Positions 1 to 8,728 of a DNA stretch of 13,500 nucleotides are shown here, piece by piece (position 1 is the first letter of the stretch; every line of letters begins with the position of its first letter). Both the position numbers and the translations under genes were made by a program. Origin of the DNA: Cyanobacteria bacterium UBA9226. GTDB lineage: Bacteria > Cyanobacteriota > Cyanobacteriia > Cyanobacteriales > Coleofasciculaceae. Location of the stretch: assembly GCA_003520045.1 (NCBI GenBank), contig DOVO01000260.1:510-14009 (forward strand), in the 5' to 3' direction. Below the pieces are notes generated by a model, which had not been told where the DNA came from, did not search any database, and worked only from the letters and a program-made list of their open reading frames with translations.

Positions 1-68
1 TCCCCCTCATTCAAAACAGATACAGCGGGCACTGCTGTAACAGCCAAAAACCAACAACCAATGAAGAA

Positions 69-3662: not shown

Positions 3663-3671
3663 GAACCTTAA

Positions 3672-3690
3672 CTATCAACTATCAACTATT
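3672..3690. repeat. Short heptamer tandem repeat CTATCAA x ~2.5 abutting the stop of the REC-HK gene
   Basis: Sequence ctatcaactatcaactatt is visible directly. This is an STRR-like heptamer. Confidence 0.5.
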
Positions 3691-5113
3691 ATTGGCTAAT
3701 TGGAATTTCAATGATAAACTCACTTCCTCTACCAAATTCACTATTAAATGATAATTTACCTTGGTGCTTTTCCACAATTATTTGATAGCTAATTGTCAAT
3801 CCCAAGCCCGTACCGGAGCCAACAGGTTTTGTCGTAAAAAATGCGTCAAATAGTCTCCTTTGGACATCTTCTGTCATCCCCAATCCATTATCGCTAATAG
3901 AGATGGTTATGCGATTATTATCAACGACATCAGTTTTAATCTTAATTGTAGGAATGGGACAAAGATCCAAGTCGCAAGTCTGATTTTTCAACTCAGAATC
4001 TCTTTCCTGAAGTAGGACACACGAAGCAACAGATAAACTCCTCCTTTCCTCAATATTTTTATTATCCATTCCCGATTTCTTAATTTTATCCTCTAGCGCA
4101 TCAATAGCATTAACCAAAATATTCATAAATACTTGGTTAATTTGACCTGCATTACATCTGACTTTAGGTAAGTCACCGTATTCTTTAATTGCATAAATTT
4201 CGGGCTTTTTACCTTTAGCTTTGAGGCGATGGTGCAATAGTAAAAGCGTGCTATCTATCCCTTCATGAATATCAGTTAATTTCCGTTGGGCTTCATCAAT
4301 ATGGCAGAAATTTTTTAGTAATAACACAATTTGGCAAATTCGTTCCGCACCTACCTCCATCGATTTCAGCATTTTTGGTAAGTCTTCTTCTAAAAATTCT
4401 AAATCTAATTCCTCAATTTTATCATTAATTTCTGGTGCAGAAGTGCCGTAGGTTTTTTGATATAGTTCAATTAGTTCTAAGATTTGTTGAGTATATTGCT
4501 TGGTAAGAGAAAGATTGCTATAAATAAAGTTGAGCGGGTTGTTAATTTCGTGAGCTACACCTGCTACCATCTGACCGATACTTGACATTTTATCGGCTTG
4601 AAATAGTTGGGTTTGAGTTTTTTGTAACTTTTTTAATGTCTCTTCAAGTTCTAAGGTTCTTTGCCTTTCTTTGGCTTGGGATCGCAACAATTCTTCATTT
4701 TGTTTTTCCAGTTGCTTTTGCAGATTTCTTAGGGTTAAATGGGTTTTGACTCGACACAATACCTCTGTGGGTTGAATCGGTTTGGTAATGTAATCAACTG
4801 CCCCCACATTAAACCCCGTAACTTTATCTCCTGTATCGCACAGCGCTGTCATAAAAATTACAGGAATATCTTGAGTTGCTTGGTTGGCTTTTAATAAGCT
4901 ACAGGTTTGAAAGCCATCAATTCCCGGCATCATCACATCTAGCAAAATTAGATCTGGCTTACTATATTCTGCTTGCTGAATGGCACTCTCACCATCTAGC
5001 GCCACCAAAACCTTAAATCCCGCATCTGTTAAATACTCGAAGATTAACCCTAAATTGGTGGGATTGTCATCAACGATTAAGATTTTGCTTGTTTCATTGC
5101 TTTCCACAGTCAT
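3689..5113 (-). CDS. Hybrid two-component protein: N-terminal response-regulator receiver fused to histidine kinase (REC-HisKA-HATPase_c)
   Basis: The 474-aa ORF has REC motifs ILIVDDNPTN and LILLDVMMPGIDGF. It then has a coiled-coil linker, the H-box VAGVAHEINNPLNFI, the N-box NILVNAIDAL, the G1 box ISISDNGLGMT and G2 PVGSGTGLGLTIS. Confidence 0.9.
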   Translation of the reverse strand: MTVESNETSKILIVDDNPTNLGLIFEYLTDAGFKVLVALDGESAIQQAEYSKPDLILLDVMMPGIDGFQTCSLLKANQATQDIPVIFMTALCDTGDKVTGFNVGAVDYITKPIQPTEVLCRVKTHLTLRNLQKQLEKQNEELLRSQAKERQRTLELEETLKKLQKTQTQLFQADKMSSIGQMVAGVAHEINNPLNFIYSNLSLTKQYTQQILELIELYQKTYGTSAPEINDKIEELDLEFLEEDLPKMLKSMEVGAERICQIVLLLKNFCHIDEAQRKLTDIHEGIDSTLLLLHHRLKAKGKKPEIYAIKEYGDLPKVRCNAGQINQVFMNILVNAIDALEDKIKKSGMDNKNIEERRSLSVASCVLLQERDSELKNQTCDLDLCPIPTIKIKTDVVDNNRITISISDNGLGMTEDVQRRLFDAFFTTKPVGSGTGLGLTISYQIIVEKHQGKLSFNSEFGRGSEFIIEIPISQ

Positions 5114-5427: not shown

Positions 5428-8400
5428 TCAAATACTACCGTTATATTGTTCGATAATTTCTCGCAATTGTTTCAGCTTAAATCTTTTAGCAAGCTGACGA
5501 ATGTGGGTGGCTAAATTATCAAATTTACTATCTAATTTTTCGAGGTAATCTGCTCGCTCGATAATTCCTTTAATATCACCCATTTTCACTAATTCTCCTA
5601 GCGTGGTAAGTTCAGAAACTGGTAAGCTGGCAACTATGAGTGAATTAGGATGGGGCGATCTATTTTTCTCAGATTCGCGATCTTCGTAAATCCATTCTAG
5701 TCCTAAATGGTAAGAAATCACATTCAAAAGATTCTTTGATTTGACAGGTTTGGGAATAAAAGATTGACAACCTGCTGCCAAACTTTCTTCCTGAATTGTC
5801 TGGGAAACACTTGCGGATAATGCGATGGTAACTGTATCTCTAAGCTGAGGTAGCTTCCGCAGTCTTCGGGTAGCTTCTAATCCATCTATGTTTGGCATAA
5901 TCAAATCCATTAAAATCAAATCCGGTACAAAATCTACAGCTTGCTTGAGGCAGTCTTCCGCATCTACTGCTTCCTTAATTTCAAATCCTAATGGTTTTAG
6001 TATTGCTAATAAAAGAGTACGGTTAACTCTATTATCATCGACAATCAAGATTTTGTGTTTCTCCCCTTTAAAACTAACAATCCGCCGATTTAGGGGTGGA
6101 GGAGCTTCTTCCCATTGGGAAACTGTAGGCAATTCTAAATCAAACCAAAATACACTCCCTTTACCCGGAGTACTAGTGACATGAATTTCGCTATTCATTA
6201 GTTGAGCTAATTTTTGACTGATACCAAGTCCAAGTCCACTTCCTTCAGAGATATGAGTAGAATCTCGCACTTGATGGAATGGCAAAAATATTTTTGCTAA
6301 TTGATTAGGTGATATACCAATACCAGTATCTTCAATTTGAAAGCGGATTTTGGTAGTTGTGGGTTGTGGGTTGTGGGTTATGGGTTGTGGGTTATTGATT
6401 ATTGGTCGAGGGCAGAGAGAATTAGTCCTTTTTTTTATAGTGAATTTTGACTTGTGAATTGGTTTATATGTTGTTGGCTCTATATATGAGTAATTAGTCA
6501 TATTTCTGAATTTTGACTTGTGAATCTTGACAGGTGAAGTGGGGGAATATCCTACTTTTAAATTTACTTCTCCTCGATCGGTAAACTTGATAGCATTACT
6601 GAGTAAATTGCTAATAATTTGCCGCAATCGTTTCTCATCGCCAATAATTCCGTTAGGTAGGGGTGACAACTGTTCGTAAGTAAATGTAATGTCTTTTTGT
6701 TCGGCACGTATTTTAAATAAATTAGCAAGACTTTTGAGGAAATTAGGAAGATGAAACTCTGTGGGAGATAGCTCCATTTTCTGGGCTTCAATTTTGGATA
6801 GATCTAAAATATCTTCAATCAGAGTAAGTAGATGTTCGCCACATTGGTAAATTATGTTTAGAATATTCTGTTCTTCTTCGGTTAAATTACTGTCATTTTT
6901 TAAGATTTGAGTGTAGCCAAATATGCCATTAAGGGGAGTACGGAGTTCATGGCTCATATTTGCCAGGAATTCACTTTTGGCACGGTTGGCTACTTCTGCG
7001 GCTTCTTTGGCTTGTTGGAATGCTGCTTCTTGTTGCTTGCGATCGCTAATATCGATATAAGCAACTACTGCTCCATAATTGGGGAGAGGAATGGGTGCAG
7101 CAGTAGCACTTAACCATACAACTTTTCCATCTGGCTTGACAATTCCCGCTTCAAAGTTTTCAATTACTTTGTTTTCTTTTAAGGCTTTCATGGGGGCAAA
7201 TTCAGAGCGAGGAATTTGACTGCCATCACTGCTAATAATTGACCATTTTTTATGGTTAAAGTCGCATTCAATGCCTTCATCATCAGACAAGCATAAAAAT
7301 TTTTCGGCTCCGGTATTGGCTTCGATGGTATTGCCCCATTTATCTGTTAGAGAAATGCCAATAGGTAAAATTTCAAAGAGGGTTTGATACTTTAATTCGC
7401 TTTCGCGCAAGGCTTCTTCCATTCGTTTGCGATCGCTAATATTGCGAGATATGCCCCGATAACCGCAAAATTGCCCCTTTTCATCAAAGATGGCAACGCC
7501 ACTGGTTTCCAAAACTACTGCATGTCCATCTTTGTGGATGAAGGTATTTTCCATACAAGTAAATGAATCGTGGCTGGAAAAAATATCGTCAAAAAAATGG
7601 GCAAGGCGATTCGCATCCCGCCAACTCATGAAATTATATGGAGATTGATCTTGAATTTCCGCTACACTGTAGCCCAATAAATCTATAACTTTAGGACTGA
7701 TGTAGCGATAAACTCGGTCTCTATCCATTTCCCACACCCAATCGCTGGTAGTTTCTACTAAATTTCTGAATCTTTCTTCACTTTTACGCAACTTTTTCTC
7801 GGCTTGTTGCCGTTTCCTCAGAGCAGCTTGCTGTTCGTTAATATCTTCACATACCGTAGTAACATATTGTGGTAATCCTCGCTCGTTTTTGATTGAGGAT
7901 ACTGTTAATCTACCCCAAACAATCACACCATCTTTACGGATATATCTTTTATCAATTGTGTAGCTTTTTCGTTTGCCTTGCAATAGGGAAACAAACAAAT
8001 CTCGATCCAGGGATAGATCCTCTGGATGGGTAAATTCGGCAAAATTAATTCCGACTATTTCGGTGGGAGAGTAGCCGAGAAAACGACAATTAGCTTCATT
8101 GCTGGCAAGGACAAACCCATCGAGATTCACTAGAGCAATTCCTACAGATATATTATCAAAAATTGAGCGAAATCTTTCTTCACTTTCTCGGAGTGCGGCT
8201 TCCACTTGTTGACGAATCTTGCGGGATTCTTCCCTAACTTCAATTTGGGATTTTATCTCTCGATTTCCATATTTTACCTCCTCTTTGTGTAGATTGCAAA
8301 TATCGGTGGCAATACTATCAATTCGGATCGCTTTGCGATTTGAATTTCTGTTTAATCGCCATCGATGAGATAGCCAGCGAGTTTCTCCACTAGGGTGGAG

Positions 8401-8667
8401 GATTCGATACTCTAAATTCAGTATCCCTAGGGAGAATATCAAGGGTAGTTGATATTCTACTCGATCCCGATCTTCAGGATGAATTACTTCTTTCCATAGA
8501 TACTTATTTTCAATAAATTCAGAGAAATCTCGTCCGTATACAGTTGCCGCACTTGCACTTAAGCAAAGGCTTTCCCAAGTCATCGGATTTACTGATAAAG
8601 CTACCTCGCTAAAATTTTTGAGAATATCTTCCAACCATTTCTGGTTTGCTCTACCTGTTTTCTTCAT
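5428..8667 (-). CDS. Multi-PAS hybrid sensor histidine kinase (PAS x ~4 - HisKA - HATPase_c - REC - C-terminal extension)
   Basis: The 1079-aa ORF has several PAS-like blocks, for example RILHPSGETRWLSHRW, FIHKDGHAVVLETSGVAIFDEKGQ and IVKPDGKVVWLSATAAP. It has the H-box ANMSHELRTPLNGIFGYTQIL, the N-box ISNLLSNAIKFT, G1 IEDTGIGI and G2 GSGLGLGISQKL. A C-terminal REC domain carries ILIVDDNRVNRT and LILMDLIMPNIDG. Confidence 0.9.
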   Translation of the reverse strand: MKKTGRANQKWLEDILKNFSEVALSVNPMTWESLCLSASAATVYGRDFSEFIENKYLWKEVIHPEDRDRVEYQLPLIFSLGILNLEYRILHPSGETRWLSHRWRLNRNSNRKAIRIDSIATDICNLHKEEVKYGNREIKSQIEVREESRKIRQQVEAALRESEERFRSIFDNISVGIALVNLDGFVLASNEANCRFLGYSPTEIVGINFAEFTHPEDLSLDRDLFVSLLQGKRKSYTIDKRYIRKDGVIVWGRLTVSSIKNERGLPQYVTTVCEDINEQQAALRKRQQAEKKLRKSEERFRNLVETTSDWVWEMDRDRVYRYISPKVIDLLGYSVAEIQDQSPYNFMSWRDANRLAHFFDDIFSSHDSFTCMENTFIHKDGHAVVLETSGVAIFDEKGQFCGYRGISRNISDRKRMEEALRESELKYQTLFEILPIGISLTDKWGNTIEANTGAEKFLCLSDDEGIECDFNHKKWSIISSDGSQIPRSEFAPMKALKENKVIENFEAGIVKPDGKVVWLSATAAPIPLPNYGAVVAYIDISDRKQQEAAFQQAKEAAEVANRAKSEFLANMSHELRTPLNGIFGYTQILKNDSNLTEEEQNILNIIYQCGEHLLTLIEDILDLSKIEAQKMELSPTEFHLPNFLKSLANLFKIRAEQKDITFTYEQLSPLPNGIIGDEKRLRQIISNLLSNAIKFTDRGEVNLKVGYSPTSPVKIHKSKFRNMTNYSYIEPTTYKPIHKSKFTIKKRTNSLCPRPIINNPQPITHNPQPTTTKIRFQIEDTGIGISPNQLAKIFLPFHQVRDSTHISEGSGLGLGISQKLAQLMNSEIHVTSTPGKGSVFWFDLELPTVSQWEEAPPPLNRRIVSFKGEKHKILIVDDNRVNRTLLLAILKPLGFEIKEAVDAEDCLKQAVDFVPDLILMDLIMPNIDGLEATRRLRKLPQLRDTVTIALSASVSQTIQEESLAAGCQSFIPKPVKSKNLLNVISYHLGLEWIYEDRESEKNRSPHPNSLIVASLPVSELTTLGELVKMGDIKGIIERADYLEKLDSKFDNLATHIRQLAKRFKLKQLREIIEQYNGSI
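6354..6395. repeat. Heptamer tandem repeat GGGTTGT / GGGTTAT x ~5.5 inside the sensor kinase CDS (encodes NPQPITHNPQPTT on the minus strand)
   Basis: A direct read gives tagttgt gggttgt gggttgt gggttat gggttgt gggttat. It is in frame with the surrounding CDS. Confidence 0.8.
6441..6525. repeat. Perfect 19-bp direct repeat TGAATTTTGACTTGTGAAT (6441-6459 and 6507-6525) inside the kinase CDS
   Basis: The two copies are spaced 66 bp apart, a multiple of 3. They encode the duplicated peptide IHKSKF in the HATPase N-to-G1 insert. The surrounding DNA is AT-rich and low-complexity. Confidence 0.8.
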
Positions 8668-8693
8668 TTGTTTATGTGGGAGGTTAGAAATTA

Positions 8694-8728
8694 GTTGACA
8701 GTTGACAGTTGACAGTTAATAGTTACTC
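8694..8728. repeat. STRR-like heptamer tandem repeat GTTGACA x3 plus two degenerate copies, between the MVP stop and the kinase start
   Basis: Sequence gttgaca gttgaca gttgaca gttaata gttactc. The same heptamer recurs at the enolase 3' end. Confidence 0.8.

Follow-up and report, generated by a model that had tools for sequence, protein, structure and literature searches.

Between the N and G1 boxes of a hybrid sensor histidine kinase of UBA9226 lies a long stretch of repeat-laden DNA through which the reading frame stays open. Such a segment inside a catalytic domain could mark a decaying gene, a mobile cassette, a repeat-driven switch or a tolerated loop, and the question is which of these it is here. 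The stretch of DNA analysed, 13.5 kb long, is referred to as the window. The insertion appears to be ordinary and lineage-specific, rather than a mobile cassette or an on/off switch. With a probability of roughly two in three, the loop that it encodes is a lineage-specific disordered expansion of a β-hairpin, built locally from heptanucleotide repeats of the STRR type.

The kinase, identical to protein P0126 of UBA9226, contains three PAS domains, HisKA, HATPase_c (matched by Pfam in two stretches) and Response_reg, and its kinase fold matches those of GacS, RetS and HK853. As expected of a HisKA/HATPase_c hybrid kinase, the H box (residues 572–580), N box, G1, F (793–797) and G2 (809–817) are all present, followed by the receiver Asp motif (917–925), in one uninterrupted frame. 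The first-pass annotation had stated that the frame is kept across the repeats, which these downstream motifs confirm; the pseudogene that it had allowed for is contradicted by the intact 1,079-residue ORF and its full set of catalytic motifs. The gene and the elements bordering the insertion are:

5428–8667, minus strand: hybrid sensor histidine kinase gene, 1,079 residues, intact, with three PAS domains, HisKA, HATPase_c and REC
6580–6603, minus strand: N box LSNAIKFT, residues 689–696, placed by motif
6547–6570, minus strand: β-strand EVNLKVGY, first arm of the hairpin, residues 700–707 (AF2 fragment residues 156–163, pLDDT above 90)
6358–6546, minus strand: hairpin loop of 63 residues (708–770), rich in Pro, Thr, Lys, Ile and Asn; predicted to be disordered from the AF2 model, its composition and its absence in GacS (7z8n)
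6331–6351, minus strand: β-strand KIRFQIE, second arm of the hairpin, residues 773–779 (within AF2 fragment residues 227–236)
6313–6330, minus strand: G1 box DTGIGI, residues 780–785, placed by motif

Separating NAIKFT from DTGIGI are 83 residues. Among 91 homologs the same spacer has a median of 39 and a range of 21–89 residues, reaching at least 70 in eight of them; the spacer is long, yet not unique. Its unusual length had been recognized earlier, although at about 95 residues, a figure approached (~97) only if both motifs are counted. The Pro/Thr/Lys-rich character then ascribed to the loop is also apparent, but the description of the segment as AT-rich is not, its GC content being 0.370, compared with 0.387 in the remainder of the gene, at the 27th percentile of windows of the same size. 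The coding strand of the loop is poor in G (6%), with a GC skew of −0.66, the most extreme within the gene. Stop-free reading through such a composition is rare, occurring in 4% of shuffles of the 189-nt loop.

In the AF2 model, the two strands of the hairpin are joined by coil with a block-mean pLDDT of 41–45. This places the insert as a loop between N and G1, within the β-hairpin that precedes G1, and supports the suggestion of a surface loop, as does comparison with GacS (7z8n), which has 9 residues at the site where the UBA9226 kinase has 66. In a second solved structure, the hybrid-kinase chain 7p8e_A, about 70 residues are unaligned at the same place. The insert had been assigned to the ATP lid, but the lid is the stretch from G1 to G2 (fragment residues ~237–268), which is modelled separately from it. 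As modelled, the segment linking the N-box helix to the G1 strand of the ATP-binding domain is probably intrinsically disordered.

Filling the loop are several layers of repeats, listed here in coding order, with one further motif on the opposite strand:

6521–6546, minus strand: degenerate heptamer or 14-nt-period lead-in (CTTCACC TGTCAAG ...), holding a third 19-mer copy of 79% identity (6521–6539); Tandem Repeats Finder gives period 14 at 6507–6538
6460–6525, minus strand: duplication unit 1, 66 nt or 22 codons, IHKSKFRNMTNYSYIEPTTYKP, starting with a perfect 19-mer (6507–6525)
6388–6459, minus strand: duplication unit 2, ~72 nt, IHKSKFTIKKRTNSLCPRPI..., starting with a perfect 19-mer (6441–6459) and containing an A8 run (6429–6436)
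6356–6393, minus strand: heptanucleotide array, 5.4 copies of CCCACAA, translated as NNPQPITHNPQPTTT with two 7-residue periods; Tandem Repeats Finder
6361–6391, plus strand: canonical G-quadruplex motif of five G3 tracts separated by 4-nt loops, on the template strand; found by a regex scan, at the level of sequence only

The array, which reads GGGTTGT on the plus strand and had been placed at 6354–6395, is the sole period-7 array in the 3.2-kb gene. Its head-to-tail units match at 93%, and they are interrupted, so that no perfect run exceeds 20 nt or 2.9 units. The perfect 19-bp direct repeat reported earlier, TGAATTTTGACTTGTGAAT, stands at both positions given for it; at up to three mismatches it has two matches in the window, where 0.02 would be expected, and it amounts to 1.4 units of a 14-nt-period repeat. 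A second block, AATTAGTC, recurs at a spacing of 72 nt, and the repeat therefore reaches past the 19-mer. Outside the 19-mers the two duplication units are only about 70% alike, and their gapped alignment in this part, equalled by 3 of 300 shuffles, is moderately significant. Judged by these likenesses, the 19-mer pair is where an imperfect ~66-nt tandem duplication has been best preserved. Together, the period-7 array, the 19-mers, the ~66–72-nt units and the recurring AATTAGTC block speak for the origin by slippage or duplication that had been considered.

Alignment with related kinases shows how the loop differs between genera. Orthologs in other genera do not carry about 145 nt of the segment, which is seen in this species; none of the relatives found falls between 65% and 96% identity. 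In five related kinase genes from four clades, three of the genes being syntenic, this very spot is taken by an array of about six heptamers, with unit sequences that differ. In the syntenic orthologs L002, L003 and L004 and the non-syntenic homolog L015, arrays of 5.4–6.3 units (by clade AACCAAA/ACCAACA, TAAGAGG and CAATGCC) are the only substantial period-7 arrays of their genes, and the ~145 nt are missing. Tandem 7-residue peptides occur in 9 of the 91 homolog loops (3.8 k residues), compared with nine proteins in the other 126 k residues, and no similar excess was seen in these loops for other periods. In a Coleofasciculus-type homolog (L013), the same loop is occupied in frame by a dispersed palindromic repeat, GGGCGGGTTT...AAACCCGCCCCTA, which has two further copies in intergenic DNA within 6 kb and is absent from a relative (L014). 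Since different heptamer units and a palindromic element are found at one spot, the hairpin appears to be a recurrent sink for repeat DNA.

Heptamer arrays also form a population in the surrounding genome, as STRR-type arrays do. Eight period-7 arrays lie in the window and 11 in 23 kb of L001, an overlapping and extending sequence from another assembly, and related heptamers (AACAACC, AAGTCAA, AGTTGAC/TGACAGT) fill the intergenic DNA of the window. Although 79% of the L001 sequence is coding, its arrays are intergenic or at gene ends, save for the kinase array and a weak period-14 array in another gene. Placement at gene boundaries is usual, not obligatory, for STRR-type arrays; the kinase array, 2.3 kb inside a 3.2-kb ORF, departs from it as the sole interior period-7 array in the stretches examined. 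Moorena contains exact tandem repeats of the 14-mer AAGTCAAAATTCAC, and in a Microcoleaceae MAG the 19-mer stands inside a related heptamer-like run; the first site overlaps no ORF of at least 80 residues, and the second overlaps the start of an ORF by just 6 nt. From these sequences, the 14-nt-period repeat apparently forms non-coding tandem arrays in other filamentous cyanobacteria.

Had the segment arrived as a mobile cassette, as was first suggested, copies of it might be sought elsewhere. The search for further 19-mers that the first-pass annotation proposed, conducted for exact matches only across 185 k species genomes, located the 19-mer in the GTDB representative of the host species at the kinase locus only. 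The exact sequence occurs once each in Moorena and the Microcoleaceae MAG, in both cases within heptamer-like repeat runs. Four further matches, in non-cyanobacteria, are put down to chance. Neither the 19-mer nor the core between its copies turns up again within the window or along the 23 kb of L001, and comparison of the insert with all retrieved loci by BLAST with short words returned only the locus itself. A core 20-mer gave one unrelated chance match in JGI metagenomes, from which the host is seemingly absent, so that this says little on the host genome. The proposal that a ~47-nt SDR- or MITE-like element was inserted into the heptamer array of the loop, with the 19-mer pair as its target-site duplication, draws on the perfect 19-nt repeats flanking a 47-nt core with a 10+10-nt palindrome (ATATGAGTAA/TTAGTCATAT), on the element in L013, and on the 21–27-nt dispersed repeats that Elhai and colleagues reportedly described in 2008 within Nostoc heptamer arrays. 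It is nevertheless unlikely, given the single genomic locus, the chance metagenome match and the structure of the insert, in which terminal inverted repeats are lacking and the internal palindrome is the only one, with no palindromic structure overall; the dispersed copies (sought genome-wide for the exact 19-mer) and inverted termini of MITEs, RPEs and SDRs are both missing. Moreover, 19 nt is long for a target duplication, and the likeness runs past the 19-mer into the core and the next unit (the AATTAGTC block and a CCAAYAAY tail), as in a tandem duplication, which explains equally well both the absence of the segment from orthologs of other genera and its flanking direct repeats. The contrast between perfect 19-mers and ~70% likeness elsewhere counts against a single old duplication, which does not predict it; later homogenisation would be needed, or a more recent event, for example a target duplication by an inserted element. 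A promoter and terminator scan of 6100–6800 yielded nothing within the insert. Inteins and introns were considered separately and ruled out by the size of the insert, its 63 low-complexity residues, the absence of intein blocks, an Rfam scan without a matching RNA family and RNA folding without significant structure (z-score −0.05).

Variation in heptamer number had been put forward as a potential phase-variable switch, that is, a contingency locus in which adding or losing one unit would shift the reading frame and turn the kinase reversibly on or off. The frame arithmetic behind this is correct, as one unit more or fewer leads to stops at residue 780 or 787 with loss of G1, F, G2 and REC; the loop also holds the A8 run, and between genera the arrays at the hairpin have clearly turned over. 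Within the species, however, all seven cluster proteins that span the loop have it in identical form, as does the DNA of two other assemblies, L001 and L006, despite polymorphic flanking residues, and the alignments of the window with both are gap-free, showing no copy-number difference in any heptamer array apart from one intergenic array of L001 that falls inside a scaffold gap and is left out of the comparison. An apparent 226-nt insertion in this intergenic array, upstream of the gene, is the run of N that represents the gap. Known phase-variable loci have tracts far longer than 2.9 perfect units. Within other clades the loop keeps a constant length (in P0007–P0010, for example, 44 residues) while its array decays through point substitution, no truncated or frameshifted allele or homolog was seen in the sampled sequences, and the gene product is a cytoplasmic signalling protein. 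A switch at this site is accordingly highly improbable. The outcome that the first-pass annotation had set against its own view, a conserved segment of the same length without copies elsewhere, is observed at the species level, while between genera the length differs. Perfect conservation across sampled strains, with a G-quadruplex motif that the regex scan finds nowhere else in the window, might also indicate co-option of the loop as a disordered Pro/Lys-rich docking or regulatory segment, or of its template strand as a G-quadruplex modulating transcription. This seems quite unlikely: the strains differ by 5 nucleotides in the last 1.8 kb of the gene and are too close for loop identity to be a sign of selection, the orthologs retain neither the peptide sequence nor the G-richness (AACCAAA, TAAGAGG and CAATGCC give no template G3 tracts), and the loop is of low complexity and low model confidence.

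For the local expansion of the hairpin from heptanucleotide repeats, the following course can be proposed. A heptamer array adjoining the KIRFQ strand would be common in position to the related kinases. A further ~145 nt would have arisen 5' of the array in this species, from a 14-nt-period repeat (ATTCACA/AGTCAAA) together with an imperfect tandem duplication of ~66 nt, through what we infer to be slipped-strand mispairing or unequal recombination. Only frame-preserving, stop-free products would survive, because translation has to continue into the G1, F and G2 boxes and the receiver domain downstream, and this would account for the G-poor, stop-free orientation and for arrays of about six units (42 nt). 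The loop now appears fixed and stable, and we take it to be most likely neutral, or nearly so, for catalysis.

Long inserts between N and G1 are found in other HATPase_c proteins, at a known variable point of the fold, as the homolog set and the unaligned residues of 7p8e_A also show; to our knowledge, none of those in other kinases is known to be built of heptanucleotides. The kinase array is like cyanobacterial STRR-type arrays in its tandem 7-nt units, which are abundant in the genome and mostly at gene boundaries. It also resembles the ORF-interior heptamer arrays of a Beggiatoaceae genome, which has 10 such sets, one of them in a variable surface loop of an RNA polymerase beta-prime-like protein (MacGregor 2015, PMC4679880), in being read in a stop-free orientation as 7-residue peptide repeats. 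It differs from them in lying inside a conserved catalytic domain, in recurring at one hairpin in several related clades with differing units, and in being joined to a ~66-nt duplication. Indels in 7-nt steps separate close Cyanothece strains (PMC4679880), whereas no such variation is seen among the sampled strains of the kinase. With RPEs, dispersed ~150-bp palindromic families of many copies, and intragenic MITEs (reviewed in PMC10969869), the insert shares the in-frame placement of repeat DNA in a functional gene at a position compatible with the fold; unlike RPEs, it lacks inverted termini and the searches located no further copy, and it is the L013 loop insert that fits this kind. Like simple-sequence contingency loci, it has a repeat unit that is not a multiple of three within an ORF, where a one-unit change truncates the protein, but its tract is interrupted as well as short, the protein is a cytoplasmic kinase, and neither copy-number polymorphism nor OFF alleles are seen.

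The main value of the locus is practical, in that a repeat-laden stretch in a catalytic domain does not have to signal a pseudogene, mobile cassette or switch. The locus is a clean example of how tandem repeats that are abundant in the non-coding DNA of filamentous cyanobacteria can enter genes and be retained as disordered loops where the fold permits. Of wider interest is the recurrence of differing heptamer units and a palindromic element at the same hairpin of related kinases. A tentative and rather doubtful extension is that the N-to-G1 hairpin of cyanobacterial PAS hybrid kinases is a place at which selfish repeat DNA systematically lands and expands, such that arrays of about six units are repeatedly swapped for new units at one codon position and at least one clade has taken up an in-frame palindromic element. 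It would then parallel, in cyanobacteria, the 'selfish DNA in protein-coding genes' of Rickettsia; the cause might be some property of the DNA at this site, or selection favouring length and flexibility in the loop irrespective of its sequence. If the recurrence is general, the loop would be a natural marker of repeat turnover and a ready permissive site for engineered insertions in histidine kinases.

Elsewhere in the window, the neighbouring kinase ORF at 3689–5113 has a long N-to-G1 spacer as well.

The kinase encoded by ORF 5428..8667 (-) is a hybrid sensor kinase of 1079 residues, comprising three PAS regions, a HisKA and an HATPase_c domain, and a receiver domain. Its catalytic motifs are complete, and HATPase_c is split into two Pfam stretches, of which the second (residues 772–847) covers profile positions 36–110. 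Between the N box (NAIKFT) and the G1 box (DTGIGI) lies a spacer of 83 residues, compared with a median of 39 (range 21–89) among 91 homologs; the first-pass annotation had called it unusually long, correctly, but put it at about 95 residues. Nor is the segment AT-rich, as had been stated (GC 0.37, against 0.387 for the remainder of the gene), its true oddity being that G makes up only 6% of the coding strand. The parts of the loop (residues 708–770) are as follows.

Parts of the loop DNA, in coding orientation
Part 1: degenerate heptamers CTTCACC TGTCAAG
Part 2: unit 1, 66 nt, starting with the 19-mer and translating to IHKSKFRNMTNYSYIEPTTYKP
Part 3: unit 2, ~72 nt, starting with the 19-mer and translating to IHKSKFTIKKRTNSLCPRPI...
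Part 4: CCCACAA array, translating to NNPQPITHNPQPTTT

Both repeats first picked out from the sequence are real: a GGGTTGT heptamer array at 6356–6393 (5.4 units, 93% matches) and a perfect 19-bp direct repeat at 6441–6459 and 6507–6525, far over chance (0.02 matches expected). Because similarity runs on past the two 19-mers, with a AATTAGTC block repeated at 72-nt spacing and a gapped alignment of the units that was matched by only 3 of 300 shuffles, the direct repeat appears to be where an imperfect tandem duplication, roughly 22 codons long, is best kept. A 14-nt repeat in which the heptamers ATTCACA and AGTCAAA alternate (period 14 at 6507–6538) underlies the 19-mer, which spans 1.4 of its units. 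Also within the loop is an A8 homopolymer on the coding strand (6429–6436; ACT ATA AAA AAA AGG), which is the same in the DNA of two same-species loci, L001 (from UBA11166) and L006.

An AlphaFold2 model of residues 545–865 (alignment of 63 sequences, mean pLDDT 83.9) has β-strands at fragment residues 156–163 (EVNLKVGY) and 227–236 (...KIRFQIEDT), with the whole intervening stretch as coil (block-mean pLDDT 41–45). Following the second strand is G1, and the G1–G2 stretch, the site of the ATP lid, is modelled apart (pLDDT ~81). Among solved structures, the best relatives are the kinase cores of GacS, RetS, ShkA and HK853; GacS (7z8n) has 9 residues at the position where the kinase has 66. From the model and the GacS comparison, the insert is predicted to be a disordered extension of a β-hairpin turn, outside the ATP lid. 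By general knowledge of the Bergerat fold, this turn is presumably solvent-exposed and far from the nucleotide site. The first-pass annotation was thus right to expect a loop between N and G1 but misplaced it in the lid, which lies beyond G1; its view of a tolerated, slippage-generated loop is supported by the disordered coil of the model and with the tandem-repeat anatomy.

The nearest relatives beyond the species are 51–64% identical. Three of these loci (L002 from Limnofasciculus, L003 and L004) are syntenic: a homolog of the major vault protein lies upstream, and a REC/HATPase gene follows downstream. In these and in the non-syntenic homolog L015, the N-to-G1 spacer has 35–45 residues and some 145 nt of the loop DNA seen in the window is absent. 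Directly ahead of the KIRFQ strand, each has a heptamer array of its own (5.4–6.3 units) with a unit that depends on the clade (AACCAAA/ACCAACA, TAAGAGG or CAATGCC, versus AACCCAC in the window), and these are the sole substantial period-7 arrays in those genes (>3 kb). Tandem 7-residue peptides, each equivalent to three heptamers, are found in 9 of the 91 homolog loops (3.8 k residues) as against 9 proteins in the other 126 k residues, an excess of ~33-fold per residue; periods 4–6 and 8–10 show no similar loop excess in this set. In a Coleofasciculus-type clade (P0012–P0017 and P0019) the loop reaches 72–89 residues, and inserted in frame into that of P0015 (locus L013, 12646–12750) is a palindromic element, GGGCGGGTTT...AAACCCGCCCCTA, with two more, intergenic copies within 6 kb (~15820–15882 and 18617–18678); the related gene of L014 lacks it. 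Since clade-specific heptamer arrays and this element share one loop, the N-to-G1 hairpin in this kinase family appears to be a recurrent sink for repeats.

MacGregor 2015 (PMC4679880) described heptamer arrays within ORFs, in stop-free orientation, one of which falls in a surface loop, itself variable, of a homolog of an RNA polymerase subunit, and also reported indels in steps of 7 nt that distinguish close Cyanothece strains. Repeats carried in frame by genes are best known from Rickettsia palindromic elements (PMC10969869), which the L013 element resembles as a repeat inserted in frame. The kinase loop is a fresh example of these known kinds; the one point that merits a survey is that unrelated repeat DNA recurs at one hairpin.

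Period-7 tandem arrays number eight in the 13.5-kb window, seven of them at gene boundaries; those below lie at or across gene ends, and several touch or overlap stop codons.

Period-7 arrays of the window
39–61: AACAACC
68–87: ATTAGCC
3670–3689: AACTATC
8693–8717: AGTTGAC
11823–11838: AAGTCAA
13329–13369: TGACAGT

Those at 39–61, 8693–8717 and 11823–11838 are intergenic and have heptamers related to the loop repeats. In Nostoc, heptamer arrays are over-represented in intergenic DNA and rare in coding regions (PMC4692102). The 19-mer recurs in Moorena sp. SIO3H5 (L005 2517–2544), surrounded by exact tandem repeats of the 14-mer AAGTCAAAATTCAC, and in a Microcoleaceae MAG (L009 1076–1095), within a related heptamer-like run, neither site being covered by a long ORF; its presence in such runs in two other filamentous cyanobacteria points to a repeat family common to several genera. 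A mobile cassette, as had been proposed, finds no support: the insert has no terminal inverted repeats, only an internal palindrome (10+10 nt), and another copy is absent from both the window and the 23 kb of L001, which overlap the window and reach beyond it. The suggested search for other 19-mers returned only this locus as an exact match in the GTDB representative genome, and a 20-mer from the 47-nt core between the copies gave a single, unrelated chance match in metagenomes.

The proposed phase-variable switch has sound arithmetic, gain or loss of one unit truncating the protein at residue 780 or 787. The sampled strains, however, do not support it. All seven loop-covering proteins of the 90% cluster (from UBA11166, UBA11367, UBA11149, UBA11159, UBA9226, UBA11366 and one further assembly) have the same loop while flanking residues vary (K/Q, T/A), so that the suggested ortholog alignment gives constant length and sequence within the species, and absence of ~145 nt only in other genera. 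Alignments of the window with L001 and L006 contain no gaps and no copy-number difference in coding or intergenic heptamer arrays, one intergenic array lying in an L001 scaffold gap and hence outside the comparison. The array is moreover interrupted (longest perfect run 2.9 units), within other clades the loop keeps its length even as its arrays lose their regularity by substitution (44 residues in P0007–P0010, for example), and no frameshifted homologs were seen. Turnover between genera shows arrays to be dynamic on a long timescale, which is not proof of switching. The L001 gap is an N run (9744–9969) exactly within the CTGTCAA/AGTTGAC array upstream of the kinase (window 8693–8717); because the UBA11166 assembly broke there, copy-number heterogeneity at this array is possible. 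Between the window and L001 the gene differs at 79 positions, with just one, synonymous, in the loop; 74 fall in the PAS-encoding first half (window 7194–8297, gene nt 371–1474) and 5 in the final 1.8 kb, a clustering suggestive of a recombination tract or of mixed strains within the MAG.

GGGTTGTGGGTTGTGGGTTATGGGTTGTGGG (6361–6391 (+)), on the gene's template strand, fits the canonical G-quadruplex pattern; neither strand of the window has a second match of this kind. Since the orthologous arrays are without G3 tracts, a conserved role for the predicted structure is unlikely. The window has no Rfam match, the loop RNA is no more stably folded than shuffled sequences (z = -0.05), and the insert contains no promoter or terminator motif.

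The window is cyanobacterial, judging from its repeated GCGATCGC sites and its period-7 arrays; its kinase protein is identical to that of the UBA9226 MAG, and its DNA is 99.7% identical to a 'Coleofasciculaceae cyanobacterium CTOTU46674' contig. Directly upstream of the kinase is an 881-residue protein homologous to the major vault protein of eukaryotes (window 8811–11456 (-); Pfam Vault, Vault_2/3/4 and MVP_shoulder), found also at L001 6991–9636, L002 264–2930 and L003 460–3132. Limnofasciculus and one other relative keep the gene order MVP, PAS hybrid kinase, REC/HATPase protein. The downstream REC/HisKA/HATPase protein (window 3689–5113 (-), 474 residues) also has an unusually long spacer, ~66 residues from N box NAIDAL to G1 box DNGLGM, in which no tandem array was detected. 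In the UBA11166 contig, kaiC, kaiB and kaiA (L001 19477–22526) are found about 6 kb past the kinase locus, and some homologs of the kinase are labelled 'circadian input-output histidine kinase' in UniRef.
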